Notes: generated by a model from the sequence alone, not told the origin. A stretch of DNA of 64,000 nt from Thermodesulfobacteriota bacterium (GCA_965198945.1 CBDAQI010000011.1:1-64000); one strand, 5' to 3'. Counted from the first letter of the stretch, positions 825 to 44,381 are shown. A program made the numbers and translations.

Positions 825-1343
825 ATGGCAAATGCAAGATGGAATTTAAGGAGCACGGGTCAGCCGGTTGAGGTCAGTCTGCCTGCTGCGGGCATCTGTT
901 GCAATGTCGGTTCATATTCTGTTTCTGAAAACAGAATGCTGCTGATTAAGGCGAATTTAAGTTATAGGCTTTTAGGAGTCAGTGGCACAAGCTCCGGAAT
1001 GACCGGAACACAAAGTTTTGCGGCTTTCGTTTCATCTGACTTTCTTAGAAAGGGAGGGACTAAATACCTTGACCCGCGAAAAACACAATTTTCTTCATCA
1101 AATCCGGACATGCAAAATTTTCAAATAAAACTGGGTGTTAAAACCGAAGGTGACAACCATCAGTTGCAGATTTTCAAGGATCAGGCGCCGGATTTTTCAG
1201 CGGAAGGTGTTTTTTATATTCCAAGCAACAGCATCAGTGTGGAAATTTCCGAGATTGATATGAAAGACCAAAAGGCTTCCATAGCGACTTCAAGAATTGC
1301 CGATGGAACTGCCACATCCGGCAAAATAGAGTCAACGCTGTAA
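825..1343 (+). pseudogene. Fibre-like family copy 1, truncated
   Basis: N-domain aligns with copies 2-4 (SENRMLLIKA, TQSFAAFVSSDFLRKGG, HQLQI). The frame breaks in the stalk: ..IADGTATSGKI, then VNAVTSTN in a shifted frame. RBS GAGGTGG precedes ATG 825. Confidence 0.7.
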
Positions 1344-1451
1344 CATCAACAAACATGGAAGAGTCTTTCAGGATTTTGGCCCGGTTCTTAATTCAACAAG
1401 TGAATTTATGAAAATTCTTTTTCCTTTCCGCTTTGCAAAAAGTGACTTGTA

Positions 1452-1730
1452 TCAAAAATGTCTGCGGACACGGGAATCTTCATCTTTTTCCGATATAAGA
1501 TAACCCTGCTGATACTGACCGCCTTTGTTGTGATAAAGACGGATTCCGGAAGGTGTTTCTATGTAGTTGCCGGATATTTTACAACCGTTCGGAATCTCAA
1601 CTTCATAGATTGAGAACGACAGCGTTTGTGATCCCAGGTTGAATTTTCTGCGTTTTTCTCCGATTTTTTCCACATTCAAAACGGCATTCTTTGCGTGTGG
1701 AAAGACCTGACCCCTGACTTCTATTTTCAT
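1452..1730 (-). CDS. Hypothetical protein (92 aa)
   Basis: Protein-like ORF with a 4-nt overlap to the upstream ORF, in the aroC transcription unit. Confidence 0.65.
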   Translation of the reverse strand: MKIEVRGQVFPHAKNAVLNVEKIGEKRRKFNLGSQTLSFSIYEVEIPNGCKISGNYIETPSGIRLYHNKGGQYQQGYLISEKDEDSRVRRHF

Positions 1731-2077
1731 CCGTTTTCCTCAACCTTTATTTTGTATAAAGACCCTACGCACATGAGAAGATGCGCAATCTTCTCGTTTC
1801 TACGGTATTTCGGTTTCCGCTCAAGAGTTTTTTCGCATGTTTCGCATCTGTCACGGGTTTCAGAGCGGAAACCGCAGTCACACTCAAAAACCGTCTCTTC
1901 ATGCCAGCACATAAGAGAGTAAACCAACTCGTTTATTCCCCAACCTACCATTACATTTCCCCATTCATCAATGGCTTCCACCAACTCTTTCCTGTAAGGT
2001 TCGGGAACTTCACTGAAATCGCCCAGATAAACACGCTCGCCCGATGAAGCGTAAACTCCGAAATTCCGTACCGTCAC
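1727..2077 (-). CDS. Hypothetical protein with CxC..CxxC zinc-ribbon-like motif
   Basis: ECDCG..RCETC; 4-nt overlap with the aroC stop. Confidence 0.7.
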   Translation of the reverse strand: MTVRNFGVYASSGERVYLGDFSEVPEPYRKELVEAIDEWGNVMVGWGINELVYSLMCWHEETVFECDCGFRSETRDRCETCEKTLERKPKYRRNEKIAHLLMCVGSLYKIKVEENG

Positions 2078-3144
2078 AGTTTTGAAATCCCGTTTATAAG
2101 CAGATGGTCCACAAGAACCAGATTGACCATTGCTTCGGCAATCGGAACGGCCCTAGGGCACAGACACGGATCGTGCCTGCCTTTTACAACCAGATTTTTG
2201 GGATTGCCTTTCTTGTCAACGGTCTTCTGTGTTTTGGATATTGATGAGGTCGGTTTTACGGCTATTCTTACCACGAGGTCTTCGCCGTTTGTTATGCCGC
2301 CGAGCAGGCCGCCCGCATTATTTGTCCGGAATCCCAGAGAGCCGTCTTTTTTCTTGAACATCAAATCGTTTACTTCGGAGCCCTGTTTCCTTGTAATATC
2401 AAAACCCATACCCACTTCAAAACCTCTTATGCCCCCTATGCTCATCAGGGCTGATGCAAGATCCGCGTCAAGTTTGTGAAACACGGGGTTTCCCAGTCCC
2501 GCGGGCAGTCCGTTTGTTACAACTTCAACAGTTCCCCCCACGGAGTCTCCCCGTCTTCTGACTGAATCTATCAGTTCAAACATTTGCTCGGATTTGCCCG
2601 GATCAGGGCAGCGCACCGGGTTTTTTTCTATATGACTGAAATTCACTTTTTCAGCCACAATCTCGCCCACGCTTCTTACAAAACCGCGTGTTTTGATTCC
2701 TTTTTTCCCAAGTATTTTCTTTGCGACTGCGCCCGCGGCGACCCGGCCGACCGTTTCCCGCGCCGAAGCCCTGCCTCCGCCCCTGTAGTCTCTGAAAGCG
2801 TATTTTTCATCATATGTGAAATCCGCGTGTCCGGGGCGGTATGTGTCTTTTATTTTTTCATATGATGATGAAATAACATCATTATTTCTGACAAGCATGG
2901 ATATGGGAGAGCCGAGAGTTTTTCCTTTGAAAACACCGGAAAGAATCTCAACCCTGTCCGCCTCCCTGCGCTGGGTTGTAACCTTGCTCTGCCCGGGGCG
3001 GCGGCGGTCAAGTTCGGACTGAATATCTGTTTCTGACAGCCTGAGCCCCGCAGGACAGCCGTCCAACACAACCCCGACCGCATCTCCGTGGGATTCTCCC
3101 CATGTTGTGATTCTGAAAAATGTTCCGAATGTATTGCCGGGCAT
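2074..3144 (-). CDS. aroC: Chorismate synthase
   Basis: GESHG, RPGHAD, GGGRASARET, KPTSSI and GRHDPC motifs. Confidence 0.98.
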   Translation of the reverse strand: MPGNTFGTFFRITTWGESHGDAVGVVLDGCPAGLRLSETDIQSELDRRRPGQSKVTTQRREADRVEILSGVFKGKTLGSPISMLVRNNDVISSSYEKIKDTYRPGHADFTYDEKYAFRDYRGGGRASARETVGRVAAGAVAKKILGKKGIKTRGFVRSVGEIVAEKVNFSHIEKNPVRCPDPGKSEQMFELIDSVRRRGDSVGGTVEVVTNGLPAGLGNPVFHKLDADLASALMSIGGIRGFEVGMGFDITRKQGSEVNDLMFKKKDGSLGFRTNNAGGLLGGITNGEDLVVRIAVKPTSSISKTQKTVDKKGNPKNLVVKGRHDPCLCPRAVPIAEAMVNLVLVDHLLINGISKL

Positions 3145-3181
3145 TTGAATATAATACCTGTTACTAAATTCCGTTTTAGTC

Positions 3182-4171
3182 TTAAATCAGCCCCTCGGAC
3201 TTAAACCACTCAACAGTTTTTCTCATGCTTTCCTCTATAGAGCCGCATTTGTATCCGAGCTCTCTCTCCGCTTTTGAGCAGTCCGCATACCAGTTATAGC
3301 GTGAGAGTTTGACCGAGTCCAAATCCATTGTTGAGTAGTTCGGGAACGCAAAGCCCAAAACTCTCTCCGCCGCAAATGCCGAAATATATGCGACCGTATA
3401 AGGGATTTTAAGTTTTGGCGCGGGGATTTCAGTTATATCTTCAAGCAGACGGAAATATTCAAGCACCGTCAGGTTTTTGTTGCTCAGAATGTATTTTTTT
3501 CCGGTCTTGCCTTTTTCAGCCGCGAGCAAGTGACCCTCCGCCACATCTTCAACATCGGTAAGGTTCAAGGTTCCGTCCATATATCCGGGAAAACGCCTCT
3601 TGCAATACCATAAAACCGAGCCCACGCTGGACAGATATCTGTCTCCTGCGCCTATGACGACCGAAGGGTTGGTAATCACCACATCAAGCCCCTTTTTACA
3701 AAAATCAAGAGCGGCGGCCTCAGCGGCGCGTTTTACGTTCATATACCCTATGTCCGCTCCGTGAAAAGACGGGTCGGGAACCGTTTTTTCGGTTATCAAT
3801 TTTCCGGTGTCAGCAGGCCCGATAGCCGCAACGCTGCTTGTAAAAACAACCCTGTCGACACCCGACTCCAGCGCGGCGGAAAGAACATTTTTTGCTCCCC
3901 CGACATTTATTTCAACCATTTTTTCATAGTCTCTTTTTTTGAAAGAAACAAACCCCGCGCAGTGATAAAGGGTTTCGCACCCCTCAAGCGCCTTCAGCAC
4001 CGAACCCCTGTCGGTTATGTCTCCGCTCACTTTTGTGAGTCCGAGCCCTTCTATGTTTTCACCTTTGCTTGTCGGGCGCACAAGAACGCGGACATCCTCC
4101 CCTTTCTCTTTGAGTTTGCGCGCGACATGAGAGCCGATGAACCCCGTTGCCCCAGTAATTAAAACAGCCAT
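3182..4171 (-). CDS. NAD-dependent epimerase/dehydratase (HpnA/dihydroflavonol-reductase-like SDR)
   Basis: GATGFIGS Rossmann motif, TSS, YxxxK (YMNVK). Confidence 0.88.
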   Translation of the reverse strand: MAVLITGATGFIGSHVARKLKEKGEDVRVLVRPTSKGENIEGLGLTKVSGDITDRGSVLKALEGCETLYHCAGFVSFKKRDYEKMVEINVGGAKNVLSAALESGVDRVVFTSSVAAIGPADTGKLITEKTVPDPSFHGADIGYMNVKRAAEAAALDFCKKGLDVVITNPSVVIGAGDRYLSSVGSVLWYCKRRFPGYMDGTLNLTDVEDVAEGHLLAAEKGKTGKKYILSNKNLTVLEYFRLLEDITEIPAPKLKIPYTVAYISAFAAERVLGFAFPNYSTMDLDSVKLSRYNWYADCSKAERELGYKCGSIEESMRKTVEWFKSEGLI

Positions 4172-4316
4172 GCCAATGCCTCCGGATTGAAAATTCTAAT
4201 TTAGAAGTTAGAAGTTTGAGCTGTAATTGTCAACGGCTGTTTGTTTTATGCGCATCTGATTGCGCGTCTTGCCTGTGTTTGCCGCCTCGTATATTCTGGA
4301 GCAGTCCGGAAGTTTT

Positions 4317-5015: not shown

Positions 5016-5037
5016 GGGAGACCGCCGGGAGTTTTTT

Positions 5038-5712: not shown

Positions 5713-5724
5713 GAGGAACGGGAT

Positions 5725-6399: not shown

Positions 6400-6413
6400 G
6401 CGCGCACTTTGAG

Positions 6414-7259: not shown

Positions 7260-7318
7260 TTTGAAAGCGATTATAAAGTTTTTAATTCCGAAAGGTCAAG
7301 ACCTGACCCGTCTAAATT

Positions 7319-7678: not shown

Positions 7679-7702
7679 TTCAAAACTCCTTTTACAGCGA
7701 AA

Positions 7703-8983: not shown

Positions 8984-8991
8984 CGTTTCCT

Positions 8992-21118: not shown

Positions 21119-23886
21119 TCACGGGCCGGTTTGGATTATACACGAAAGGGTTATAGGTTGTGCTCCATCTGTTAAGTCCGGAGCATTTGCCACGCTTGCA
21201 GTATGAGCAGCGATGCAGATATAAGTATTATTGTCCCTATATCTGACCATGGAAGCCGAAGAAGATGAGCTTGCGGCTTAATCTGGTACTCCGTCAACCC
21301 ATACTTTAGCCCATTGTAATCCCGGCACACCCTGCGGGCAGGCGGATCCGGGTGGCCCCTTCTCGGCTTATACGGGATACGCCTGGCTCCAGCCTGAATT
21401 GGAATTGTCATGCGGGTCATGAGTAAACCATGCCTGATATACTGTATGAGTTGCGAAATTGATGCCAGTGGGTTCCGTCTGGCTCCAGTCGCCAAGACTG
21501 CTGGTGATCATTTTTGTTGAATGATCGTAAACAATCGCCTCGGTGGGCAGAAACGGAGCGTTGCTTTCGCCGGGGCCTTCTTCCACTGACTGAAAGATAT
21601 AAACCCTATAGGGGCCTTGAGCTCCGCGTATACTTGAAATATCTCCTATCTTTTCAACCGTAACGGCTCCGTCCGCAATCTTATCGGTTGTAATTGTGCC
21701 ATTAGCAATGTTCTCTGATGTAACACTTGCAACATCCCGCATGGTCATATTGGTATTGAGATGATAAACATCCAGCCATATCTTGTTATGGTCTACTCCG
21801 CCGGAAGACTGCGGCCAATAAGCAAGTAGTGTATAGTTTGTAGTTCGGCCGATAGCAACGGGTATTTCACCACCTGCCGAGTTTGTAAGAGACATTGTTA
21901 GTTGAGCAGCAGAGTCAAAGTTTGCACCTGCAGTTGTAGCTGGCAATGCTCTTAGCTTGGCAACGGAAATCCATTGATCGCTTTCTATTTTTCCTTCATC
22001 CCATACGCTTCCCATATCAAGAATAAGCCATCCGTCTACAGGGATTTCTATGCCGGTATTGACCGAACTGGTTCGGGGATCTAACACAGCAGACTGTCTA
22101 AATTCCCCAATTTTTGTTATAGCGCCACCCACAGCGCCGGAGATATTTCCGACAAATACCCATGAGGTGGGAGTTCTGACTCCGCTGTCGTCTGTTGCCT
22201 GCACAAAAATATCGCCACGGCGCACTGTCTGACGAGTTGTATAGGCAACGGAGTTTTCAGTAATTGTGAATCTTGTTCCAACCTCACTGCCGGACAGGGG
22301 TATGTCCCTGATAGCCAGTGCGCAGCCTACGGAATCTGTTCTTTGAAAGTCCGATGCTCTGTCAAAACAGACAACCATGCCACCCGCGGCATAATTTGGT
22401 GCGTTCAATTCCGCCGGGTTTCCTTCATTGTCAAAGCCTAGGAACTTGTTCGCCGTGCCATGGGCAAGTTGCACAAGTCCGACTGAATCGTCTGGCACCT
22501 TTGATGCCGGAATGGTAGCCGTATTGCCAGTCTCTGCCCAGTCAGCAACATTTGCCTGAATCCTGGCATCAACCTGTGACTGATTCAAAAGGTTTGAGGT
22601 ATCGGGAATCTCACTGTCCCGCGCTACACTGTCGGGGATTTTGCTGTCCGGTATTGTGTCGGTATTTCCTTCAGTCGCCCACTCGGCCGCATTGGAAGAC
22701 GAACCCTCCTTTTCCACCGGAATGCCGTTCTAGTCAAAGCCCAGAAACTTATTCGCCGTGCCGTGCGCAAGCTGTGCAAGGCCAACGGAGTCATCGGCTA
22801 TCTTGGATTGTGTTACCGCACCGTCAGCAAGTTTCGGATTTGTAACCGCACCGTCAGCGATTTTGGGTGTTGTAACCGCTCCATCGGCGATGTTAGTCTC
22901 AATAACAGCGGAGTTGGGTATTTTCCCCGTCACTATCGCTCCGGGCGCTATGTGTATGCTGCCCACAGCATTAGGGGCTATCGTTCCGGGCGTAACAGCT
23001 CCGGGGTTTATGTTAACCGACTCCACAGCATTGGGAGCTATCTTCCCCGGTGTAATAGCTCCGGGGGCTATCTGTATTGAGCCCACGGAACCGTCCACTA
23101 TATTGCCCGAAGTTACGGCATTGGGAGCCAGCTTTCCTGAAGTTACAACGCCGTCTCCGAGTTCAAGCGAACCCACGGCTCCGGCGGCTATGGTGCCCGA
23201 ATTCACCGCGTTGGGAGCCATCTTTCCAGCAGTAACGGCTCCAGGTGCAATCTGCAATTCACCCACAGTTCCCCGCGCTATGTTAGTGGAAGTTACCGCA
23301 TTGGCGCCTATCTTCTCAGAAGTAACAGCCCCATCTGCAATTTTCTGGGTTGTTACCTCTCCGTCGGCAAGGTCGGGTTTAACCTCAAAAATCTCCACCT
23401 CTATATCGTCGGTTGGAATAAAAGAAAAAAGACCTTCTCTAAAGACCCCCGGAATTTCCTTCTCTTTTGCACCCTCCCGGCACTGGTCAACGGAATTTCC
23501 CCCCTCTTTTGAATCATCGGACGCCACACCGCACCTTGCAATCCGCAACTGATGACCACCCCATTGAGCTTTTACCGCAAGTTTCGTGTCAAAATTACGC
23601 AAAACCTCTCTCGCAATATTAAACTGCCCGCATTCCAACTCCAGGTATCTGATTCCTCTTTCTCTCAGAAAGTTGGATGAAACCATACCGGCAAAAGTTT
23701 GTGTCTCTATCGGTGGGTATAGTGCTCTGGAGAAAGGATGGAACACCCTGTATTTCAATCGTGCCGTAATCATCAGCATCCTGTCTTCCGGAACCGCATA
23801 GTCTCCGCGATATTGTGGTAAGTGTCTTCCTTGGGTAATTCCACATCACCGTTAAACACACTGTTTAGTTTCCAATTTGTTCCCAT
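21119..23886 (-). pseudogene. Fibre-like family copy 2, multiply disrupted long allele
   Basis: ATG 23886; 2-nt insertion near 23807; 20 IAxGAVT decapeptides; in-frame TAG at 22730-22732 where paralogues have GAG; continues as ORF 21368..22717; decayed tail past TAA 21368 (GPPGS..PQG, VRYRDNNTYICIAAHT). Confidence 0.8.
22772..23371 (-). repeat. 20 tandem 30-bp (10-aa) coding repeats [IL]AxGAVTxxK
   Basis: LADGEVTTQK IADGAVTSEK ... LADGAVTQSK IADDSVGLAQ, counted from the translation. Confidence 0.9.
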
Positions 23887-23955: not shown

Positions 23956-24108
23956 CTAAAAATATGAAAAAAAGATAAAAAGCTGTGTTTAAGAGGGTTG
24001 ATTGATGAAATGGAAACCGGTTGTTGAATTAAAAAACGGCCAACTTGCCCCCTGTAATTATCTGCCTGACACGGAATCCGAGGTTTATGACAGAAATTTG
24101 TCGAAATA

Positions 24109-24598
24109 CTGGATTCCCGTCCCCGTTTTCACGGGGACAAGTTTTCACGGCAATGACGAGAAAAGTTAGAATGAAGGTGGAAGTATGGGAAAACACAACA
24201 ATTTACTTCCTCCGTGACTCCCATGAAAGGTTGCACTCGTGAAAATGATAGGGACGGGGGTGGCTCTCTTTCGTCATTGTTCCCGTTCTTTTAGGTTTTC
24301 CAGCACCCTTCTACGTTATTCCCGCTTCCCTCTCGTCATTCCCGTGGAAACGGGAATCCAGTATTATGTTGAAAACACATTGCGGAAGATCAGCCGTAAC
24401 GCCAATTTAGAATGTTTTGTTCCGTCTGTTTCCTACGAGGTTAGTTTTTTAATTTTCAGGTTGCCTTGAGTCGCTTTTTCTCAGCTGGCGGACAACATTG
24501 TGTTTTTGAGTCATTTGTTGTCTTTCCCTGGATACCCGTTCCCATCCCCGTTTTCACGGGGACATGCTTTCATGAGGACATGCTTTCACGGTAATGAC
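24109..24598. repeat. Cluster of dRS3/REP-like palindromes
   Basis: Copies at 24109-24157 (nested), 24335-24361 (ATTCCC-GTGGAAAC-GGGAAT) and 24528-24598 (doubly nested). Confidence 0.85.
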
Positions 24599-24661: not shown

Positions 24662-24880
24662 TCACCTGTAAGTGTGCTCTCTTAAGTGCTCTCTGTCCGT
24701 GATTATCTTTAACACCGTTCCACAATAGTCGCAGGTGAAAACAACTTTTTTCGGCGGATGGCTTATGCCGAGTATCACAAGCACCCAGCCGAGAGCGGAG
24801 TATCGTGACTTCGGAGATACAAGCGGCGAATCAAGTTTGTTGCCGCATTCGCAGATGGTATTTTCAGCCCGGTCGCTCAA
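24662..24880 (-). CDS. Small zinc-ribbon membrane protein (CxC-hydrophobic-CxxC)
   Basis: CECG ... LGWVLVILGI ... CDYCG; 4-nt overlap with the upstream gene. Confidence 0.7.
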   Translation of the reverse strand: MSDRAENTICECGNKLDSPLVSPKSRYSALGWVLVILGISHPPKKVVFTCDYCGTVLKIITDREHLREHTYR

Positions 24881-25680
24881 AACGCCTCATTTAACCGTTT
24901 GAATTGCTCTCTTTCAAGCCGCCAGCCCGAACAGCCGCAGTTTTCAATCGTTCTTTCAACACTGTCCGATTTCGGAATAACAACCACACAATCATGGCAC
25001 AAACACCAGTTCAGAGCCACCTGTGCTTCGGTTTTTCCGGTCTCTCCGGCAATTTCACTCAAGACCCCGTATTTACCGCTCCCGTGCGACTTGCGGCACA
25101 AACTTCCGCTTCCAAGAGGTGTGTAGGCAATTACCGTCACTCCCCTGTCTTCGCAGAAAGGCAGTAAATCATTTTCAATTTCTCTGTCATTCAAACTGTA
25201 GCGCACCTGATTTGAAACAAGCGGGGTGTTTCCCATATAGCTCTGCGCCTCCTCAAATTCCGCAACTGAAAAATTGCTCACTCCGACAAAACGCACAATC
25301 TTATCGTCCACAAGTTTCTGCATCGCCCTCATTGTATCTCTGATGGGGAAAACCGGATTGGGCCAGTGAATCTGATAAAGGTCTATCGTTTCCACTCCAA
25401 GATTTTTGAGACTTCCGTCCGCTGCTTTAAGCACGTCGTCATAACCGAGATTTTTCCCGGAAACCTTTGTCGCGATGAAAACATCGCCGCCCACGCACGC
25501 CGCCGCTTCTCCTGAAACCCTCTCAGTGCCGTAGCCCTCGGCCGTGTCTATAAAACGCGCCCCGAGTTTGATGCCGACTCTGAGCGGCTCAGTGCCGGCC
25601 CGGTAGTTCCATGTTCCCAGACCGACTTCGACAATTTTTACATCAGTGTTTCCCAGAGTTTTAAGGCCGACCGTTAGCAT
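24877..25680 (-). CDS. Aldo/keto reductase
   Basis: GLGTW, IDTAE.Y, IDLYQIHWP, GVSNF, IPKS. Confidence 0.95.
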   Translation of the reverse strand: MLTVGLKTLGNTDVKIVEVGLGTWNYRAGTEPLRVGIKLGARFIDTAEGYGTERVSGEAAACVGGDVFIATKVSGKNLGYDDVLKAADGSLKNLGVETIDLYQIHWPNPVFPIRDTMRAMQKLVDDKIVRFVGVSNFSVAEFEEAQSYMGNTPLVSNQVRYSLNDREIENDLLPFCEDRGVTVIAYTPLGSGSLCRKSHGSGKYGVLSEIAGETGKTEAQVALNWCLCHDCVVVIPKSDSVERTIENCGCSGWRLEREQFKRLNEAF

Positions 25681-25688
25681 ACGGGCTC

Positions 25689-26306
25689 TTATCTCTTTCC
25701 GTTTGTGGACAGAAATACAAAAGCTGCCGCGGCGCCGCCGGCAAAATTAGCCGCAAAATACAGAAGGAGGCCGGATAAGTCAGTAAAACCCCGGATAAAA
25801 AGCCCCGTCGCAACGGCCGGATTGAAAACCGCTCCCGAAACGGAACCGAAGGCTATCGCCCCCGCAAGCACCACAAGCCCTATCGCAAGACCGTAAAAAG
25901 AGTTGCCTTCCGTGCCCGCGGCCGTGGCGACATTCAGAACCACAAAACAAAGCGCAAAAGTGAAAAAGATCTCCGCAATCAGAAGCGTCCCGGTCTTAAA
26001 AACAACGGCCGTTTCCGGCGCGGGAATGAAAAATGTTGAAAGCAGACCGGCGCAAACCCCGGCGGTAATCTGCGATGCCGCGTAGGGGACCACTTCCCGT
26101 CCGTCCGCATTTCCGCGTAAAAAAAGTGAAAGTGTTACGGCCGGATTGTAATGGGCTCCCGATATGTGGCCTCCGGCAAATATCATAGCCATCAAAATCC
26201 CGGCTATCGCAAACGGGGCGAACTGTCCCGAAGACGCTCCGACCGTAAAAACAAGAAAGAAAGTGCCTACAAATTCAACAGCGAGTTTTTGTGTCAGACT
26301 GCGCAT
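25689..26306 (-). CDS. MIP family channel (aquaporin-like)
   Basis: SGAHYNPAVT and FNPAVA (two NPA motifs); RBS GGAGG before ATG 26306. Confidence 0.93.
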   Translation of the reverse strand: MRSLTQKLAVEFVGTFFLVFTVGASSGQFAPFAIAGILMAMIFAGGHISGAHYNPAVTLSLFLRGNADGREVVPYAASQITAGVCAGLLSTFFIPAPETAVVFKTGTLLIAEIFFTFALCFVVLNVATAAGTEGNSFYGLAIGLVVLAGAIAFGSVSGAVFNPAVATGLFIRGFTDLSGLLLYFAANFAGGAAAAFVFLSTNGKR

Positions 26307-26421
26307 TTCAAATGTTCCTCCCGCTAAATTCAGTTCGCTAATTATCCGTTTCATGGACAATTATTCAAGTTCCGCGTTTCTTTTTGACAACATCGGAGGC
26401 AATGGCTACACTCAAAGTCAA

Positions 26422-26829
26422 ATGGCAATGAAAAAGATCATAACTATTCAGCCCGACAGTCCCGACGCAAAAGAACCGCGGAGTTCCGGAGTTGAATTCA
26501 AAAAGTTTGAGAAAAAGAACGCCGCTCCCGTTGAACTGACCGAAGAAACTGTCTTTGAAGCTCTCGGAGGCGTTAATGACCCGGAGCTTCCCGTAAGCAT
26601 TGTTGAGCTCGGACTGGTTTACGATGTTCAGATTTCCGGAGCGGACATCGGTTTGAAAATGACTTTGACAACTCCCGGATGTTCAATGGGCGGTATGATT
26701 GCTGGCCAAGCGGAAGAAGCGCTCAAAAACATAGGGGCAAGAAACGTAATTGTGCAAATGGTCTGGGACCCGCCATGGAATCCTGACATGATGAGCCCGG
26801 AAGCAAAACGCAAACTTGGCGTGGAGTAA
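26422..26829 (+). CDS. DUF59/SufT-like Fe-S cluster assembly factor
   Basis: DPEL.VSIVELGLVY, MTLTTPGC, WDPPW. Confidence 0.92.
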   Translation: MAMKKIITIQPDSPDAKEPRSSGVEFKKFEKKNAAPVELTEETVFEALGGVNDPELPVSIVELGLVYDVQISGADIGLKMTLTTPGCSMGGMIAGQAEEALKNIGARNVIVQMVWDPPWNPDMMSPEAKRKLGVE

Positions 26830-26843
26830 TTTCCTCAAGGCAG

Positions 26844-27905
26844 ATGAATCTCACACCCGAAGCCGTTGCAAGACGGTTAAAACAGGTTAAATATCCCGGT
26901 TTTACAAGGGACATAGTCTCATTTGGGATTCTTAAAGATGTCAGCGTGGATGAAAATTCCGCCGTGAAAATTTCCCTTGTTCTTCCAAAAAACGACCCTG
27001 AAATACAAAAACAGATAGAAGAACGGGTCAGAACGGCGGTTCTTGAGACTCCGGGAGTGGAAGAGGTTTCAATTCAGACCCAGTCAAGAGAATCGTCGGG
27101 GCCGCGGCAGACCTCCGGCACGGCGCAGACCCGGCATTCAAAACTGCCTGAAATAAAAAACTATGTTGCAGTCGCAAGCGGAAAAGGCGGCGTGGGCAAA
27201 TCCACAGTCGCGGTCAATCTCGCAGTGGCTCTCGGCAAAAAGAGACAGAATGTGGGTTTGATGGATGCGGACATTTGGGGCCCGAGCGCTCCGGTGATGA
27301 CCGGAACCCTGGTAGAAACACCGGTCGCCACGGCCAACAAAAAAATACTTCCCATAGAAAAATACGGTCTGAAAATTGTGTCAATAGGCTATCTGATAAA
27401 GCAGGAAGAAACGGTTATATGGCGGGGCCCGATGGTGCATGGGGCGGTTAAGCAGTTCGTGGAGGATGTGGAGTGGGGAAACACCGATTATCTTGTAATA
27501 GACCTGCCTCCGGGAACCGGAGACGCCCAGCTTTCAATCGCACAGACCGCTCCGCTGAGCGGAGGGGTTATCGTCACAACCCCGCAGGAGGTCTCACTGA
27601 TAGATGTGCGGCGCGGAATTCTTATGTTTGAAAAACTGAATATTCCGGTAATCGGAATAGTTGAAAATATGAGCTATCTGAACATTCCCGGCGGCAAAAC
27701 AATGGACATTTTCGGGCGCGGCGGAGGAAAGGCAATGGCGGACAAGTTCAAGGTGCCGTTTCTCGGCGAGATACCGATTGATCCGGAAATAAGAAAAAGC
27801 GGAGACTCTGGAGTGCCGATAGTGGAGTCAGATCCCGACTGTGCGGCTTCGCTTGCGTTTATGAAAATTGCGGACGAAGTTCTAAAACAACTGGAAGAAA
27901 ACTGA
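26844..27905 (+). CDS. apbC: Mrp/ApbC Fe-S cluster carrier ATPase
   Basis: SGKGGVGKST, WRGPM, DLPPGTGD, VTTPQ, ENMS. Confidence 0.93.
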   Translation: MNLTPEAVARRLKQVKYPGFTRDIVSFGILKDVSVDENSAVKISLVLPKNDPEIQKQIEERVRTAVLETPGVEEVSIQTQSRESSGPRQTSGTAQTRHSKLPEIKNYVAVASGKGGVGKSTVAVNLAVALGKKRQNVGLMDADIWGPSAPVMTGTLVETPVATANKKILPIEKYGLKIVSIGYLIKQEETVIWRGPMVHGAVKQFVEDVEWGNTDYLVIDLPPGTGDAQLSIAQTAPLSGGVIVTTPQEVSLIDVRRGILMFEKLNIPVIGIVENMSYLNIPGGKTMDIFGRGGGKAMADKFKVPFLGEIPIDPEIRKSGDSGVPIVESDPDCAASLAFMKIADEVLKQLEEN

Positions 27906-27919
27906 AAGAGGAGGTTGCT

Positions 27920-28225
27920 ATGAGCGAAGACAAAAAAGAGCAGACTGAAAACCGGCAGACTGGCGAGTTGAAAATGGACTTTTCCAACTTTGTTCTCTCT
28001 CTGAATGCATCGGCGATTATGCATCTGGGAGACATTCCCGACCCTAACACAAAAGAGCGGAACGTAAATCTGCCGGCCGCAAAGCATACGGTTGACATTC
28101 TTGAGATTCTTCAGGATAAGACCAAAGGAAACCTGACTGATGAAGAACAAAAACTTATAGATGACGTGCTTTTCAGTTTGAGAATGAGGTATGTGCAGGC
28201 TACAAAGCCGGCGGAAAAAAATTGA
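27920..28225 (+). CDS. DUF1844-like protein
   Basis: F..FVLSL..SA..HLG.IP.P..NL.AAK..DIL.IL..KTKGNL. Confidence 0.8.
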   Translation: MSEDKKEQTENRQTGELKMDFSNFVLSLNASAIMHLGDIPDPNTKERNVNLPAAKHTVDILEILQDKTKGNLTDEEQKLIDDVLFSLRMRYVQATKPAEKN

Positions 28226-28325
28226 ACAGACAAAAACAGTTTTTAATGCAAAGCTTTTAGGAGCTTGCTCCTCACCCGCCCCGAAGTGACTTAGTTCATA
28301 ATTTCAAGTCTTGGAATTGGTAAAA

Positions 28326-29435
28326 ATGCGTAATTTGCTGAAAACAGAGGTGTTTTTTACAGTTCTGTCTTTATTTTTATGTCTCAATGCTTTTGCCGGA
28401 GGAGAACACGAGACCGGTATACAGCTGAATAAAGAAGGCTTCAGACCCATTGACGCCGACGGCCATGCGCCCATTGGTGTTATGGGTGACCATACACACA
28501 ATAAAGGCGAATGGATGCTGTCTTATCGCTATATGTATATGGATATGTCAGGAAACCGCAGCGGCAGTAAAGGGATAAGCACTGAGAAGATTCTTGATAT
28601 GCCAAACCGTTTTTTCGGAAAACCCGGACAGCCTCCGAAATTGCGTATAGTGCCGACAGACATGAAGATGAGTATGCATATGCTCGGTGCAATGTATGCG
28701 CCTGACGACAGGGTAACAATGATGGTTATGCTGTCATATATGGAAAAATCCATGCGTCATATCACCTTCAACATGCCTGGAACAAGCAGGGTCGGTAATT
28801 TCAAAACAAAAGCAGGTGGCATTGGTGATACGAAACTGTCGGCTCTGATAAGGTTGTTTGATGATGACATTCACAATCTGCATCTTAACATGGGGTTGAG
28901 TCTGCCTTCCGGTTCAAATACAAAGCGCGGCGATGTGCTGACACCCATGGGAACATACATGAATGTGCGGCTGCCATATGCAATGCAACCGGGTTCCGGC
29001 ACATTTGACCTGTTGCCGGGGCTGACTTATACCGCAAGGCTGAAACCATTTGGTTTGGGAGCGCAATATGTCGGCACTTTTCGCGCCAACAGGGATAACG
29101 GTTACAACCTTGGAGACAAGCAGGATATAAGCGCATGGATTAGTTACCAGTGGCGGTCCTGGATAAGCATTTCCGGCAGAATGGTTTATCTGTACCAAGA
29201 AAATATAGAGGGGATTGACCCGCAGATAGTCGGCCCGGTGCAAACCGCAGACCCGAATAACTACGGCGGTGATACTCTTACATTATTGTTTGGGGTTAAT
29301 TTCGCCGGTCAAACGGGCCTGCTTCGCGGCAACCGCATTGCGTTGGAAGCCGGAATACCCGTATATCAAGACCTGAATGGCACACAACTTGAAACAGATT
29401 TTACAATAACCGCCGGATGGCAATACACATTTTAG
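28326..29435 (+). CDS. Outer-membrane beta-barrel transporter-like protein (HAPIGVMGDH family, Met/His rich)
   Basis: Signal peptide, HAPIGVMGDHTH, RLPYAMQ.GSG, C-terminal WQYTF. Confidence 0.8.
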   Translation: MRNLLKTEVFFTVLSLFLCLNAFAGGEHETGIQLNKEGFRPIDADGHAPIGVMGDHTHNKGEWMLSYRYMYMDMSGNRSGSKGISTEKILDMPNRFFGKPGQPPKLRIVPTDMKMSMHMLGAMYAPDDRVTMMVMLSYMEKSMRHITFNMPGTSRVGNFKTKAGGIGDTKLSALIRLFDDDIHNLHLNMGLSLPSGSNTKRGDVLTPMGTYMNVRLPYAMQPGSGTFDLLPGLTYTARLKPFGLGAQYVGTFRANRDNGYNLGDKQDISAWISYQWRSWISISGRMVYLYQENIEGIDPQIVGPVQTADPNNYGGDTLTLLFGVNFAGQTGLLRGNRIALEAGIPVYQDLNGTQLETDFTITAGWQYTF

Positions 29436-29921: not shown

Positions 29922-30779
29922 ATGAATAATTGGAATCTAACAAATGTAAGCGATGTGAGTGTGGACTTGTCCACCGCAGACGCTTACCACAATGTCGGGA
30001 ATTATACGGTTCCCGAAGACAGGATGCTGCTGATTACGGCGAGTTTGAACTATACGCAGTTGGGCGGCTCCGCAACGTTGGAGACGCAGAGTTTTGCGAC
30101 TATTGTTTCGTCGGACTTTCTCAGAGAAGGAGGAATCAGATATCTGGAACTGGACAGGGGGCAATTTGCTTCTTCAGACACGAATCTGCACGATTTTAAC
30201 GCAAGGTTTATGTTGAAATCGCAATGGGGCAGCCATCAGCTGCAGATTTCAAGAGAGGATAACGGGCAGTCGCCCTTTGCTCCGGTGGACAGCGCTGTTT
30301 ACTCTGAAAGCAACAGTGTGAGAGTGCGGGTTTTTGAAGTCGGTTTGGAGTTGTCCGATGATGTCGTAACTCAATCCGCAATAGCCGATGATTCGGTCGG
30401 GTTGGAACAGCTTGCGCATGGGACGGCGAACAAGTTTCTGGGCTTTGATGAGAGCGGCAACCCGGCGGAGAAAGATGCTCCATCCGATACTACTTTATGG
30501 AGAGGTGATTGGACTGCCGGCGATTACATAGTGGGGCAAATGGTTCAACATGCCGGCAACATATATTTATGTGTTTCGGCAAGAACTTCTGCAAATACAG
30601 AGAACCCTTCAGCAGATACGAACAGCTGGTCCCCTCTTTCAGGCGGAAGCTCAACAGGAGGCGGAGCGTTGACGGGCGGGAGTTACAATGCCGCAACGGG
30701 CGCTCTGACTTTTACAAGACAGGGACTTGCGGACATTCAAGTTAACATCGGAGTAATACCGACAATCAGGAGAGTGTAA
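29922..30779 (+). CDS. Fibre-like family copy 3 (N-domain, 2 stalk repeats, linker, CBM5/12-like module)
   Basis: RBS AGGAGG; VPEDRMLLITA; DDSVGLEQLAHGTANKFLGFD; WRGDWTAGDY..GQMVQH.GNIYLC. Confidence 0.8.
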   Translation: MNNWNLTNVSDVSVDLSTADAYHNVGNYTVPEDRMLLITASLNYTQLGGSATLETQSFATIVSSDFLREGGIRYLELDRGQFASSDTNLHDFNARFMLKSQWGSHQLQISREDNGQSPFAPVDSAVYSESNSVRVRVFEVGLELSDDVVTQSAIADDSVGLEQLAHGTANKFLGFDESGNPAEKDAPSDTTLWRGDWTAGDYIVGQMVQHAGNIYLCVSARTSANTENPSADTNSWSPLSGGSSTGGGALTGGSYNAATGALTFTRQGLADIQVNIGVIPTIRRV

Positions 30780-30781: not shown

Positions 30782-31399
30782 ATGGGACTGCGATTTGAAA
30801 ACTTTGGCATTGATACTTTTGATATAAGATTGCCTGACGGCTACAGCCCATCTGACGGAGACCTTGAAATACAAGGAATACAGGGCGGTAGCTCCACACA
30901 ACGCCTTAAATCCACGGACGGGAGCGGGGCAAGATACAACTGGAATGGGAATGTTTTGTCTCAGGCGTATAAATCTCTGGTTATACCCGCAAATCGCTGG
31001 AGGCGAGCCTCGGTGGGAAACTGCATAGGAGTTAGGTCAACAGCCGTAAACGATAGGAGGGTTGAAGTAACATCCGTAACAGCCCTACCCATAAAGGTAA
31101 GACATAAACAGAGCGGTTCATTGTTGGATTTTCTTCTTTGTATTGAAGATTTGAACAGACAAACCAGAATAAGTGTTGCAGTTGACAACGGCCGATATTC
31201 ACATGCCATTCGCAATGTTTCCGCCTTTACGATTCAAGGAACTGCTTACCAGTTATTAACCAATTGGAATCACGGTGATATGACCTGGAAGTATGGTGAT
31301 TTGGCAGTGAGTCAATCTAATTTTGAATTTCCCGGACAGGAAGTAATTTTGTCTTTTCCTTCCGACCAGCCGTTTGAGTTTGTTCCGTATCCGTCATGA
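30782..31399 (+). CDS. Stand-alone (or frameshift-separated) C-terminal domain of the fibre-like family
   Basis: CIGVRST..LPIKVRHK..DF.LCIE and FPSDQPFEFVPYP match copy 4 CLGIRST..LPVKIRRK..DF.ICVE and LPTDQPFEFVQYP. Confidence 0.75.
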   Translation: MGLRFENFGIDTFDIRLPDGYSPSDGDLEIQGIQGGSSTQRLKSTDGSGARYNWNGNVLSQAYKSLVIPANRWRRASVGNCIGVRSTAVNDRRVEVTSVTALPIKVRHKQSGSLLDFLLCIEDLNRQTRISVAVDNGRYSHAIRNVSAFTIQGTAYQLLTNWNHGDMTWKYGDLAVSQSNFEFPGQEVILSFPSDQPFEFVPYPS

Positions 31400-36128: not shown

Positions 36129-36140
36129 TTCTTCCGGCTC

Positions 36141-37495: not shown

Positions 37496-37496
37496 T

Positions 37497-38556: not shown

Positions 38557-38584
38557 AAGATTTTGAATTACTTTGGCTGTCTCT

Positions 38585-39943: not shown

Positions 39944-40975
39944 ATGAATACAAAACTTTTGAAAAAACTTTGTGACATTCCCGCAATTCCCGGAGACGAG
40001 GGAGCGGTCAGAGATTTTGCCGTTTCTGAGCTTGCGAAATATGCAAAAGACATATCCGTTGACACAATGGGAAACGTTATAGCCCATATAGGTGGAAAAG
40101 GCGGAAAACTTGTTGTTGATGCCCACATGGATGAAGTGGGTTTTATGGTGAGCCACATAGATGAAAAAGGGTTTGTGAGGGTTCACGCGCTCGGAGGCAT
40201 GGACGCGAAGGTTTTTTACGGACAGCGGCTTGTTGTTCACGGTCTGAAGACCCTTTATGCCGTTGTTGCGGCAATCCCTCCCCATGTAAGCAAAGCGGGC
40301 GGCGCCAGTGGCGTTCCGGAAATTGAAGACTGTGTTCTTGACCTTGGTCTTTCGGCGGACAAGGTGAGAAAGTATGTGAAGGTCGGGGACGCCGTAACCT
40401 TTGACACCGAGCTGCGCGAAACTGAAGACGCTGTGATTTCGCGCGCCATTGATGACAGAGTCGGAATTTTTGTCATCCTTGAAATGCTCGCCGCAAAACC
40501 GAAACCGAGTTGCGACTTGTTTGTTACTCTGACGGTGCAGGAGGAACCCGGTTTGAGAGGGGCGCGTTTGATCACGCCGGCGCTTGAGCCGGATTTTGTG
40601 CTCGTTCTTGAGGGAACGGTCACAATGGATTTGCCCGGAATCCCCGCGCACAAAACCCTTGCCAATGTTGGCAAAGGACCTGAAATCCGGCTTTCAGACC
40701 GCTATCTTGTGGCGGACAGGGAATTCAGTTTCTTCATAAAATCCGTCGCGGACAAGAAAAAAATTCCGTCTCAAATCACAGTTAAAAAAGCCGGCGGAAC
40801 AAACGCGACCGCGATGCAGGTAACGGGCCGGGGAAGCAAAGCGGCGGTTGTTTCCGTGCCGACAAGGTATTTGCACAGCCCGAGTTCCGTGGCTTACAAG
40901 AGCGACATTGAGGCCACAATAAAACTGGTTAAGGGCGTTGTTGATGGTATGGGAGATTTTCATGCAAAACGGTAA
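39944..40975 (+). CDS. M42 family metallopeptidase
   Basis: AHMDEVG, AIDDR.G, TVQEE.GLRGA, GGTNA, RYLHSP. Confidence 0.93.
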   Translation: MNTKLLKKLCDIPAIPGDEGAVRDFAVSELAKYAKDISVDTMGNVIAHIGGKGGKLVVDAHMDEVGFMVSHIDEKGFVRVHALGGMDAKVFYGQRLVVHGLKTLYAVVAAIPPHVSKAGGASGVPEIEDCVLDLGLSADKVRKYVKVGDAVTFDTELRETEDAVISRAIDDRVGIFVILEMLAAKPKPSCDLFVTLTVQEEPGLRGARLITPALEPDFVLVLEGTVTMDLPGIPAHKTLANVGKGPEIRLSDRYLVADREFSFFIKSVADKKKIPSQITVKKAGGTNATAMQVTGRGSKAAVVSVPTRYLHSPSSVAYKSDIEATIKLVKGVVDGMGDFHAKR

Positions 40976-41957
40976 AGAACTCGGAAGGATGAAAAAAATT
41001 AAACTCAGGGAAATATGGAAAGACGAGGCAGGAGATTTTACTCCTTGGCTTGCCGAGGAAGAGAATCTGGCTCTTCTCGGCGACACAATAGGGCTTGAAC
41101 TGGAACTTGAGGGTAGAGAGACGAGTGTCGGAGATTTCAGAGCGGACATTATGGCGCGCAATACCGCGGACGGAACCGTTGTTTTGATTGAAAACCAGTT
41201 GAAACGCACAGACCATGTCCATTTGGGACAGTTGATGGCTTACACCGCGGGGCTGGAGGCGGCCACAGTCGTGTGGATTGCTTTAAGGTTCACAGATGAA
41301 CACATGGCGGCTTTGGACTGGCTAAATGAAAATACGGATGACCAATTCAGTTTTTTCGGGCTGGAAGTAGAGTTATGGCGAATAGGAAACAGCATTCCCG
41401 CGCCAAAATTCAATATAGTTTCAAAGCCTAATGACTGGAGCCGGGAGGCAAGGGTCGGCGCTCAAAAAGAGTTGTCTGAGACCGATAAGTTTCGCCTTAA
41501 CTATTGGAAGCATTTTAGAAAATATATGGAAGACCAGAACACTAAACTGAAATTGCCAAAACCTAATAAGCTACATTATATGACTTTCAGCATAGGCAGG
41601 AGTGATTTCAAATTGGTTACTGTAATCCGCTTCCAAAACCCAAAAAGGATCCAGTGTCAATTTGAGGCTTGGAGAGATTATTCGGGGCCGATGTTCAGAT
41701 ATCTTGAGGAGAACAAGCTGGAAATTGAAAAAGAATTCGGAGCCAGTTTGGATTTTAAAAAAACCAAAAAGGGCGGTGGTATGTCTCTGTCTGTATTTTT
41801 GCACACTGACCCCCAAAATAAGAATGAGGCCGAAAGGGAAAAACAGTTCAAATGGTTTGAAGATAATCTCATGAAGTTTGACAGGATTTTCCGCCCATTG
41901 GTAAAAGATTTCAATCCCGATGAATGGGAAGAATACGAAGAAGATGAGATTGAGTAA
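40962..41957 (+). CDS. DUF4268-type protein with N-terminal PD-(D/E)xK nuclease-like domain
   Basis: LRE.W.DEA.DFTPWL, VG.FRADI, IENQL..TDH.HLGQL..Y.AG. Confidence 0.82.
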   Translation: MQNGKELGRMKKIKLREIWKDEAGDFTPWLAEEENLALLGDTIGLELELEGRETSVGDFRADIMARNTADGTVVLIENQLKRTDHVHLGQLMAYTAGLEAATVVWIALRFTDEHMAALDWLNENTDDQFSFFGLEVELWRIGNSIPAPKFNIVSKPNDWSREARVGAQKELSETDKFRLNYWKHFRKYMEDQNTKLKLPKPNKLHYMTFSIGRSDFKLVTVIRFQNPKRIQCQFEAWRDYSGPMFRYLEENKLEIEKEFGASLDFKKTKKGGGMSLSVFLHTDPQNKNEAEREKQFKWFEDNLMKFDRIFRPLVKDFNPDEWEEYEEDEIE

Positions 41958-41959
41958 AA

Positions 41960-42292: not shown

Positions 42293-42304
42293 AAGGAGTA
42301 ATTT

Positions 42305-42688
42305 ATGAAATACCTGCACACAATGATAAGGGTCGGAGATTTGGAAAGGTCAATCCGTTTCTATACAAATGTTTTGGGTCTTGTTCATCACCGCACAACG
42401 GACTATCCGGACGGCAAGTTTTCACTCGCTTTTCTCGGTTACGGTAACGAAACCGAGCCGTTTCTTGAACTCACTTACAATTACGGAGTGACTGAATACG
42501 AACACGGCGGCGGATACGGGCATATGGCGTTTGCAGTTGAAGACATATACGCCGCGTGTGAAAAGATTTCCGAACTTGGCGGAAAGGTTGTTCGCGCTCC
42601 CGGGCCGATGAAACACGGCAAAACTGTGATTGCCTTTGTGGAAGACCCTGACGGGTACAAAGTTGAGCTGATAGAAAGAAATTCATAG
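42305..42688 (+). CDS. gloA: Lactoylglutathione lyase (glyoxalase I)
   Basis: [28 protein letters not shown]. Confidence 0.96.
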
Positions 42689-42806
42689 ATACCGCATATT
42701 TCTCAAAAAACACTCCTGAATAATCTCTTTTTCAAACGCGGCAAGGCAACTGCCGTCTCATAAGCCCCTTTGAACAAACGGGCTTCTTATTTTTTTCTTC
42801 TTGTTT

Positions 42807-42875
42807 TTGCCAAGGGAAACAGTTTTTCCCTATAACAGTGCATAACCAAAATTTAATTCATAGGAGGATAATACT
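42807..42875 (+). promoter_or_regulatory. Family promoter/leader
   Basis: TTGCCA 42807-12, 18-nt spacer, TATAAC 42831-36, then AGTGCATAACCAAAATTTAATTCATAGGAGGATAATACT-ATG. Confidence 0.7.
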
Positions 42876-44381
42876 ATGGGAACAAATTGGAAACTAAACA
42901 GTGTGTTTAACGGCGATGTGGAATTGTCCAAGGAAGACACTTACCGCAATATCAGAGACTATGCGGTTCCGGAAGACAGGATGCTGATGATTACGGCACG
43001 ATTGAAATACAGGGTGTTCCATCCTTTTTCCAGAGCACTATACCCACCAGCAAAGACACAGACTTTTGCCGGTATGGTTTCGTCCAACTTTCTGAGGGAA
43101 AGGGTTATCAGATACTTGGAGCTGGAATGCGGGCAGTTTAATATCCAGAGAGCGGTTTTGCGTGATTTTGACACGAAACTTATGGTAAAAACTCAATGGG
43201 GCAGCCATCAGCTGCAGATTTCAAGAGAGGATAACGGGCAGTCGCCCTTTGCTCCGGTGGACAGCGCTGTTTACTCTGAAAACAACAGTGTGAGAGTGCG
43301 GGTTTTTGAAGTCGGTTTGGAGTTGTCCGATGATGTCGTAACTCAATCCGCAATAGCCGATGATTCGGTCGGGTTGGAACAGCTTGCGCATGGGACGGCG
43401 AACAAGTTTCTGGGCTTTGATGAGAGCGGAAATCCGGTGGAGAAAGACGGTTTGTCTTCTACTGCAAGCGGAACATTAGAATGGCGTAATGAATGTGCGG
43501 CGGGTGAATCATATTCAGGCACGGCTCCACAATCATTGGTTAGATATGCATCTGACGGCAATGTGTATATCTGCACTCAAAGTCATACTTCAGTTGCAAC
43601 ACAAACTCCGTCTGCAATTACAATTCCCGGTGCCACTTGGCAGATGGGTGTAGAGCGGCACTGTTTGGGTATTCGTTCAACAACTGTTGCTGATACAAGA
43701 GGTGCTGTTACTGAAATTCCTTCGTTGCCTGTTAAAATTAGAAGAAAAAACACAGGAGCTATTTTTGATTTTTATATATGTGTAGAGGCGCAAAGATCTG
43801 TTGGAAGTGGACACGGGTTACTTGGGATAACTTTATCAATTTGTGATGGTAATTCCGCCGCACCTTTTGACGATGGAAATGCCTTTAATGGTAGAAATGG
43901 AGTAAAACGACTTACTATCGGTGATATAGAAATTTCTCCTTTTGATGATTATCGTCAGTTCAGAGAGAATATGTATCACATTTATGAAGACGATACTCCG
44001 GGTGATAGATCCCAATTTGAGAATTTAGGCGCAGACGGTTCAGATGTGGTTATTTCTCTGCCGACAGACCAACCGTTTGAGTTTGTGCAGTATCCGGCTG
44101 TAAACGTTCCCGGCAGCACAGAGGGCAGTAACTTTTGGCAATTATTCAGCGGGCCGGGAGACGGATTAAAAAACACTTATTCGGCTTTTATAAGAAGTTC
44201 TTCAACTCCTTCCGTGCCGACAAGCATATCTGTAACAAACGGAGATGTTACAACCGTGGCCGGAACCGGCTGGTCAACTTCAGTGCCGTCCGGCAGTGCC
44301 AAGTTGTGGGAGGCGCGGGTGCGCTCGTCAACGGTCAGTGGAACCGTTACCGGAGGATTTACACTCATTCCATATGGATAA
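42876..44381 (+). CDS. Fibre-like family copy 4 (intact, mosaic)
   Basis: N-domain, DDSVGLEQLAHGTANKFLGFD linker, CBM-like VRY..GNVYICTQSHTS, DQPFEF domain, FIRSSSTP..PT..GW..VP.G..LW motif. Confidence 0.85.
   Translation: MGTNWKLNSVFNGDVELSKEDTYRNIRDYAVPEDRMLMITARLKYRVFHPFSRALYPPAKTQTFAGMVSSNFLRERVIRYLELECGQFNIQRAVLRDFDTKLMVKTQWGSHQLQISREDNGQSPFAPVDSAVYSENNSVRVRVFEVGLELSDDVVTQSAIADDSVGLEQLAHGTANKFLGFDESGNPVEKDGLSSTASGTLEWRNECAAGESYSGTAPQSLVRYASDGNVYICTQSHTSVATQTPSAITIPGATWQMGVERHCLGIRSTTVADTRGAVTEIPSLPVKIRRKNTGAIFDFYICVEAQRSVGSGHGLLGITLSICDGNSAAPFDDGNAFNGRNGVKRLTIGDIEISPFDDYRQFRENMYHIYEDDTPGDRSQFENLGADGSDVVISLPTDQPFEFVQYPAVNVPGSTEGSNFWQLFSGPGDGLKNTYSAFIRSSSTPSVPTSISVTNGDVTTVAGTGWSTSVPSGSAKLWEARVRSSTVSGTVTGGFTLIPYG

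Follow-up and report, generated by a model that had tools for sequence, protein, structure and literature searches.

The 64,000-nucleotide stretch analysed here (GCA_965198945.1, CBDAQI010000011.1:1-64000; contig C11:1-64000 of genome G000, hereafter the window) comes from a marine Thermodesulfobacteriota bacterium and carries four members of a dispersed family of fibre genes, with four more elsewhere in the same genome. Two aspects of this family are well supported: structurally, its products are modular trimeric fibres in which a constant N-terminal domain (N-domain) is joined through a shaft and neck of phage type to exchangeable tips; evolutionarily, the genes form a species-restricted, recombining set of paralogues under purifying selection. 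The products may function as extracellular binding fibres anchored by the N-domain, and we would give an even chance to the explanation favoured here, in which they are envelope-anchored or otherwise cell-associated binding fibres diversifying by gene conversion.

The assembly comprises 1.39 Mb in 14 contigs, with an estimated completeness of 95.3% and contamination of 0.01%, and tblastn places eight family loci in it. The four in the window, referred to as copies 1-4 (c1-c4), lie where an original prediction, made from the sequence alone, had put them, and all match a hidden Markov model (HMM) of the N-domain built from a six-row alignment (A1) at E values of 1e-57 to 1e-78. The four others, found by tblastn together with the A1 profile, are named after their contigs C4, C5, C6 and C13. 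The profile search for copy number that had been proposed gave nine matches at the eight loci. The full architecture is intact at five of the eight, with proteins of up to 558 amino acids (aa): the C5, C6 and C13 copies (553, 558 and 379 aa) are all intact, and the C4 copy encodes 392 aa followed by an out-of-frame tip remnant 98.6% identical to the C-terminus of copy 4. Together the genes occupy roughly 11 kb, or about 1% of the genome. A scan of 40 open reading frames (ORFs) in the window agrees with the earlier description of copies sitting singly among housekeeping genes with no prophage nearby, their neighbours being aroC, ccmABC, purD, glmSU, aspS, fmt, nadK, prfB, apbC, sucAB, era, rarA, gloA, uvrC and similar genes.

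The N-domain, about 145 aa long and beta-rich, is the first element of every copy, and 24 columns of alignment A1 are invariant, including the motifs ML.I.A.L.Y, TQ.FA..VSS.FLR and HQL. It had been described as a shared beta-rich domain of about 140 aa belonging to no recognised family, and it proved an orphan in all databases searched. Among 61 genomes only the window's own was positive (none of five from the same genus and none of 55 others from the same order, hence none of 60 relatives). HMMER over 1.84 billion (1.84e9) protein representatives returned 11 hits at E<=1e-3, six of them from the same genome; the sole credible outside match is P0007, a 136-aa fragment on a 2.2-kb metagenome contig (E 4e-28), and the four other hits are weak, the three examined being tandem-repeat or NACHT proteins that are probably spurious. 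A word-indexed search recovered own-genome proteins only (4 of 187 candidates), the sequences had no Pfam hit at E<=1, and no relatives were found in PHROG, in PDB sequences (nothing significant) or in the ESM Atlas (nothing usable). The N-domain family is thus new to the databases consulted.

The part that follows the N-domain is far more familiar. Across the family the stalk consists of 2-21 units of 10 residues: copies 1, 3 and 4 have about two, and in copy 2, cut into tens, about 19 units of the form xxIAxGAVTx run up to the neck with no register shift. The stalk ends in a conserved neck, IADDSVGLxQLAHGTANKFLGFD, of which DDSVGLxQLAHGTANKFLGFD is present twice in copy 2 and also in copies 3 and 4. 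The original prediction of a decapeptide stalk followed by a DDSVGL linker was right about the stalk and the motif; the supposed linker is the end of the stalk itself, since the neck lies in the same 10-residue register and so makes up its terminal 2.5 units. That both elements are of phage-fibre type is borne out by database matches. Among the 19 PHROG families hit by the copy 2 stalk, phrog_892 ('tail fiber') ranks first at E 1.2e-41, and phrog_28766 reaches E 1.2e-28. Records of cultured phages that match the C6 protein number 131, none of them spanning over 80% of it; those at the top come from T7-like cyanophages, roseophages and others and are annotated as tail fibre, tail fiber-like, host-specificity or hypothetical proteins. 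In pairwise comparison the C6 stalk is 33-39% identical to the tail fiber-like protein of S-TIP37 (E 8e-29), the match being confined to the repeats and its apparent extension into the N-domain being repeat-driven. The neck motif recurs, with 51% identity over 45 aa, in an ORF that belongs to a fibre cluster of the T7-like viral contig L043 and adjoins a gene with a Phage_T7_tail N-domain. The same decapeptide stalk also occurs in trimeric autotransporter adhesins (TAAs) of this genome and its relatives, and a phage origin of the stalk is for this reason likely rather than certain. On L043 itself (an IMG/VR contig of 4666 bp), positions 913-4271 hold three fibre-type genes, carrying respectively a Phage_T7_tail N-domain, a DDSVGL neck and a Pgp3-like C-terminal trimer domain.

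Modelling as a trimer, which had also been proposed, predicts a homotrimer for residues 1-205 of copy 4. With three chains and a shallow, custom-made paralogue alignment, a set-up outside the calibration of the tool, ipSAE values of 0.65, 0.66 and 0.67 were obtained, whereas none of three controls exceeded 0.00; part of these scores may stem from resemblance to phage fibres of solved structure. The models have a pLDDT of 74-75, and at least 91% of the contacts recur between runs; those predicted with confidence concentrate at residues 146-195, in the stalk unit and neck, with further contacts in the N-domain. A homotrimeric fibre is supported by these models, not proven.

The tips beyond the neck are diverse, and of three modules originally named for them one has proved real, one is weak and one was not found. 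The DQPFEF module is shared, at 28-30% identity, between copy 4, where it is fused in frame (residues 239-408), and the separate ORF at 30782-31399 behind copy 3. Pfam matches to CBM5/12 all remain below the cut-off of 26.2 bits (c3 22.1 bits, E 1.5e-4; C4 19.9; c4 14.6, E 0.034). No Gly-X-Y collagen repeat and no Pfam collagen family was found, only a Gly-rich tail in copy 3, and no S74 chaperone-protease domain was found in the family. A QVDAR..DWAExGNT..IP repeat lies between the two necks of copy 2; the downstream ORF of that copy resembles six outside metagenome proteins that share 9-20% of the query and have no Pfam family, the shared part in the four examined being this repeat, and it has no match among cultured phages. 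Residues 150-501 of copy 4, searched against a collection of 5.8e9 proteins, retrieved own-genome proteins only (3 of 6651 candidates).

How the family evolves can be read from the pattern of identity between its members. Pairwise Nei-Gojobori estimates for the N-domain, scored for 26 of 28 pairs (two identical or near-identical pairs gave no ratio), place the ratio of nonsynonymous to synonymous divergence (dN/dS) at 0.28-0.52 with dS of 0.37-1.76, which indicates long-standing purifying selection, and given this selection the copies are not mere relics. At the same time the genes are mosaics. Copy 4 is chimeric: positions 42801-43218, beginning about 75 nt upstream of the ATG, are 85-100% identical to copy 2 and C13, and the adjoining 43219-43452, ending about 35 nt past the neck, are 97-100% identical to copy 3 and C4. 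The C4 copy in turn shares 1034 bp (29442-30475) with copy 3 at 99.6% identity, a tract that takes in a REP-like (repetitive extragenic palindromic) element as well as 155 bp from an adjacent S8-like gene and stops 26 nt after the neck, and its last 321 bp, including about 100 nt past the stop, are 97.5% identical to copy 4. Conversion tracts of this kind, 97-100% identical, have their ends within the N-domain or a little beyond the neck. The DNA of C5 does not differ from that of C6 over about 360 codons, after which their tips diverge sharply (pS 0.38-0.70, pN 0.29-0.39); identical 5' parts joined to divergent tips indicate that the tips are old and distinct and that the 5' parts have been homogenised by recent conversion. 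The chimeric copies and conversion tracts bear out the proposal of a diversifying family with a constant N-domain and exchangeable tips.

Comparison with relatives points to rearrangement at the same sites. The uvrC to prfB interval is short in three complete genomes of the same genus and holds no fibre gene, and the gap between uvrC and gloA, 176-330 bp in G002 and G001, is occupied here by copy 4. The block of genes for aldo-keto reductase, aquaporin, apbC and an outer-membrane protein at 24877..29435, which separates the head-to-head copies 2 and 3, differs as well: its aldo-keto reductase, aquaporin and apbC genes have the opposite orientation in G002 and G003 and yet another arrangement in G001. 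We infer a probable inversion by recombination between the inverted copies 2 and 3. Two dedicated mechanisms were considered and rejected: a diversity-generating retroelement (DGR) target, as RVT_1 has no match in the genome although its control was detected, and a site-specific invertase shufflon, as there is no recombinase among the 40 window ORFs and the two tyrosine recombinase matches of the genome both lie far from the copies. About 900 bp upstream of copy 4, a DUF4268 gene (40938-41957, +) gave no hit when compared by tblastn with the corresponding intervals of three genomes of the genus, and the spot around this gene and copy 4 looks like a variable hotspot.

The individual copies differ considerably in their state of preservation, and the original description is to be corrected in this respect: copy 4 is intact, copy 2 is broken, copy 1 is headless, and the DQPFEF module of copy 3 is a separate ORF. 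Copy 4 (42876..44381, +) encodes 501 aa and comprises the N-domain, about 1-2 stalk units, the neck (43359-43421), a CBM-like stretch, the DQPFEF module and a C-terminal module (HMM E 1.2e-78). It is preceded by a shared 5' leader (42782..42875, +) with a promoter-like TTGCCA-18 nt-TATAAC and an AGGAGG 8 nt before the ATG; copy 4, copy 2 (23887-23983, minus strand) and C13 do not differ over the roughly 60 nt that precede the ATG. Forty nt after its stop, a GC-rich hairpin (44420..44455), flagged as terminator-like on the minus strand only, lies inside the 97.5% tract common with C4, which extends to 44482. Copy 3 (29922..30779, +) encodes 285 aa, with the N-domain, about 1-2 stalk units, the neck (30387-30449), a CBM5/12-like stretch and the Gly-rich tail; the DQPFEF-module ORF behind it (30782..31399, +; 205 aa) is in another frame and has an AGGAG 8 nt before its own ATG. 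Upstream of copy 3 lie the 3' remnant of an S8-like outer-membrane gene (29442-29596) and a REP-like element (29600-29760), both co-duplicated with the 5' half of copy 3 from the C4 locus. Copy 1 (825..1343, +) is a 'headless' gene of 172 aa in which the N-domain and two stalk decapeptides are followed by a stop, with no neck and no tip (HMM E 1.1e-64).

Copy 2 (21368..23886, -) starts at an ATG at 23886, has REP-like palindromic elements upstream (24048..24365), and carries two lesions. The first, a +2 frameshift near 23806, consists of two extra bases near codon 27 relative to copy 4 and C13; the second, an in-frame TAG at 22730-22732, falls exactly at the paralogues' Glu after GFD. The ORF at 22730-23779 (-) holds the rest of the N-domain, the stalk of about 19 units and neck 1 (22733-22795), and the ORF at 21368-22717 (-), the continuation beyond the TAG, holds the QVDAR/DWAETGNT repeat module, neck 2 (22430-22492) and a tip of about 340 aa. 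An alternative genetic code behind the TAG was rejected, as other ORFs read normally. The public data that contain the region amount to four contig-type runs from two samples of one study. In them the TAG site is matched exactly by one contig (X1 record 2, 22534-22991, 0 differences), and the frameshift site by another from the second sample (X4 record 25, 23399-24322, 0 differences, depth 2); support for the lesions is modest, because both samples come from one study and one may be the source of the assembly. A contig with a 2-nt deletion at 23806 carries the diagnostic bases of copy 4 and is a paralogue contig. Most other 'differences' and 'joints' on these contigs likewise reflect paralogue contigs and REP elements, and they are silent on inversion isomers.

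Each copy carries its own leader and a strong ribosome-binding site, and in the explanation favoured here three chains are predicted to associate through the stalk and neck. The variable tips would bind different ligands, probably glycans, and the constant N-domain would fix the fibre to a lineage-specific structure, for which we consider the cell envelope likelier than a virus-like particle. The sequence pattern shows a repertoire reshuffled as the scattered copies recombine homologously and convert one another, with broken or partial copies perhaps serving as sequence reservoirs. A more specific version of this scheme, which we regard as unlikely, would be a cassette-style variation system in which full, partial and broken copies of signal-less trimeric fibres swap anchor halves and tips by gene conversion at two conserved junctions, one in the N-domain and one at the neck, drive inversions, and dock through the N-domain on the envelope by a non-Sec route.

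Several observations count against envelope-anchored binding fibres. Some concern export: a crude hydropathy test found no Sec signal in the family copies and no export system was recognised, so that surface display is conjectural. Within the first 45 residues, Kyte-Doolittle hydropathy taken over 12 aa peaks at 0.5-1.6 in the family and at 2.5-2.75 in three secreted proteins of the same genome that served as controls, which agrees with the original prediction that signal peptides are lacking; no in-frame start of copy 4 lies upstream of 42876. Models of type I secretion ATPases score at best 171 and 266 bits, far short of their respective cut-offs of 510 and 726. Structurally, the AlphaFold2 monomer of the N-domain is all-beta and poor (pLDDT 50.7), the model of the copy 4 tip (residues 196-501) reaches a pLDDT of 34, and the trimer run has the calibration problem given above. 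Ligand binding is suggested solely by the sub-threshold CBM5/12 match, and positive selection cannot be claimed for tips whose pN/pS is below 1. Three of the eight loci are damaged or incomplete (c2 broken, c1 headless, C4 with its out-of-frame remnant). As to expression, the promoter-like site in the leader was read by eye and a consensus scan raised no flag there, and no RNA is found among the public runs listed as containing the region. Type I secretion through a TolC-like gene near the C4 copy was also rejected, as this gene belongs to an AcrB-type efflux set. In that set both the transporter and its membrane-fusion adaptor are broken up, with two overlapping ORFs apiece (L045, G000:C4:22000-33500, positions 5303-8420 and 8413-9529); these additional frameshifts of the assembly may be real decay or assembly slips.

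The rival that survives best, unlikely as we judge it, is that the fibres equip a virus-like particle, be it a phage, a satellite or a non-contractile bacteriocin, whose other genes are absent from the assembly or too novel to recognise, with the N-domain attaching to the particle and the copies acting as alternative host-range cartridges. It stays alive because a signal peptide is lacking, as it is in virion proteins but not in the mosaic adhesive trimers (MATs) of Bdellovibrio bacteriovorus. The stalk and neck shared with T7-like phage fibres suit it, as do the order of N-domain, neck and tip, which mirrors a podovirus fibre ORF on L043, and the accessory nature of the family, absent from all five same-genus genomes. 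In VIA-align, the top folds for the weak N-domain model are those of tail tips of phages lambda (lambda J, Z 8.3) and T1 (7.8), next to 4-1BBL (7.8) and the C-terminal domain of Bd2133 (7.2), with further generic matches (TNF-like, GOLD, jelly-roll, beta-sandwich), all at the stated noise level of the tool. Against a particle stands the genome itself: Phage_sheath_1, Baseplate_J, GPW_gp25, HK97 capsid, Terminase_6N and Phage_portal all had no match in the 95.3%-complete assembly, in which the controls for each were detected; binning can lose mobile contigs. The same search goes against the suggestion that the fibres are loaded on a tailocin or an extracellular contractile injection system (eCIS) encoded elsewhere, as sheath, Baseplate_J and gp25 have 0 matches each genome-wide, and the proposed genome search for eCIS, tailocin and type I secretion genes found none, with no secretion ATPase above its cut-off. 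Moreover, pattern scans over contigs of viral, metagenome and genome origin recovered no N-domain, copy 4 has no match among cultured phages, and hhalign of the N-domain with two fibre ORFs of the T7-like contig gives a probability of 0.1-0.2%, with no relation to the T7 tail-fibre N-domain (Phage_T7_tail, PF03906). Nor does a set of eight scattered single genes, every one with a leader of its own, resemble a prophage. The label 'host-domesticated', given to the family earlier, is uncertain, as the stalk is also present in the genus's own TAAs.

We consider it improbable that the family is a selfish or decaying repeat, in which a phage-derived fibre gene was spread by REP recombination or by a REP-associated tyrosine transposase (RAYT) and is now eroding without a cellular role. 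Several features lend themselves to such a view: the three broken or partial loci, the absence of the family from relatives, the position of copies at synteny breakpoints, a REP-like palindrome with 28 matches genome-wide, 10 of which have a family gene no more than about 450 bp away, and a RAYT-like gene at 6414-7259 (-; 75.8 bits vs a cut-off of 80). However, the low N-domain dN/dS at a dS of up to 1.76 indicates long-term constraint, five loci keep the full architecture, the ribosome-binding site and leader are conserved, and some 11 kb has been retained in a streamlined genome. Very improbable, finally, is an intracellular anti-phage decoy, in which host fibre chains would co-trimerise with those of infecting T7-like phages so that the foreign N-domain blocks tail attachment and poisons the progeny: its sole support is consistency with the missing export signal, the T7-like stalk and neck and the variable tips, none of 10 proteins had a meaningful PADLOC hit (one repeat-driven hit, E 3.5e-5), there is no defence-island context, and we know of no precedent for a fibre decoy.

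Some other genes of the genome may be recorded here. Giant TAA-like adhesins (1633 aa and >1854 aa) are encoded at L005 (G000:C12:136000-147963, positions 3211-8789 and 10720-11940) and L006 (G000:C10:9000-17000, positions 1-5562); they have YadA-type head repeats, signal peptides, C-terminal anchors and the decapeptide stalk of the fibre family. The S8-like lipoprotein or outer-membrane gene is multi-copy (L003 6707-8590, -; L004 6226-8252, +; weak Peptidase_S8 match, E 5.6e-6), with 1064 bp 100% identical between C4 and C13 and the C13 copy split into two ORFs. In the window, two adjacent paralogous genes of 158 and 163 aa (35652-36632, -) each have an FmdB-type zinc ribbon, and the prfB ORF (20002-20880, -) covers profile positions 68-352 only, as would fit the programmed +1 frameshift that is usual for release factor 2.

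Whichever function applies, the N-domain is a clean orphan family and a good target for structure determination, and the copies illustrate how paralogues reshape a small chromosome. If envelope-anchored binding fibres are the correct explanation, even streamlined plankton would invest about 1% of the genome in a variable binding repertoire. Among known systems, the fibres of T7-like (Autographiviridae) marine phages (PHROG 892 and 28766) share with the family the decapeptide beta-stalk, a DDSVGLxQLA..GNP neck, the order of anchor, shaft and tip, and the lack of a signal peptide; in contrast to them, the family is not in a phage genome, its N-domain is unrelated to PF03906, and it consists of eight chromosomal paralogues among housekeeping genes. 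The YadA-like TAAs of the same genome and genus have the same type of stalk and are trimeric, but they possess a signal peptide, YadA-like heads and a C-terminal membrane anchor; signal peptide and YadA-type anchor, present in the true TAAs of this genome, are absent from all copies of the family, as are the heads. Cassette systems such as Neisseria pilE/pilS and the orphan-tip arrays of contact-dependent inhibition (CDI) and Rhs loci combine a conserved 5' part and a junction motif with variable 3' modules and donor copies. The family likewise has a conserved 5' part, a junction motif, variable 3' modules, recent conversion tracts and possible donors, whereas its donor copies keep their own leader and start codon and no dedicated recombination sequence or enzyme was identified; its tips, moreover, are not toxins and come without immunity genes.

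The closest architectural parallel is the MAT superfamily of B. bacteriovorus, which comprises 21 genes (Caulton et al., 2024, PMC10769870). According to that report, the MAT N-domain lacks a PDB homologue and presumably binds the predator surface (PMC10769870). Both systems consist of many dispersed chromosomal genes (21 in Bdellovibrio, eight here), both have a conserved beta-rich N-domain of about 130-145 aa without a PDB homologue, and both combine phage-fibre-like trimeric shafts with swappable C-terminal tips, the trimer being a prediction in the present case. They also differ: the MAT N-domain, as described there, directly follows a signal peptide, which the family here lacks by the crude test; no S74 chaperone-protease domain was found here; and the present host is a streamlined marine Thermodesulfobacteriota, no known predator. 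The profile search of 1.84e9 proteins gave no sequence link, and the likeness is one of architecture only, with no MAT sequence compared directly and only C-terminal MAT parts held in the PDB. Cell-encoded phage-like fibres with swappable tips have so far been documented in a predator, and an independent version with an unrelated anchor in a 1.39-Mb marine bacterium would, if the favoured explanation is true, suggest that the design arises repeatedly. The design itself is known from phage fibres and MATs; its signal-less, dispersed and conversion-shuffled arrangement in a streamlined marine bacterium is new to the databases consulted.

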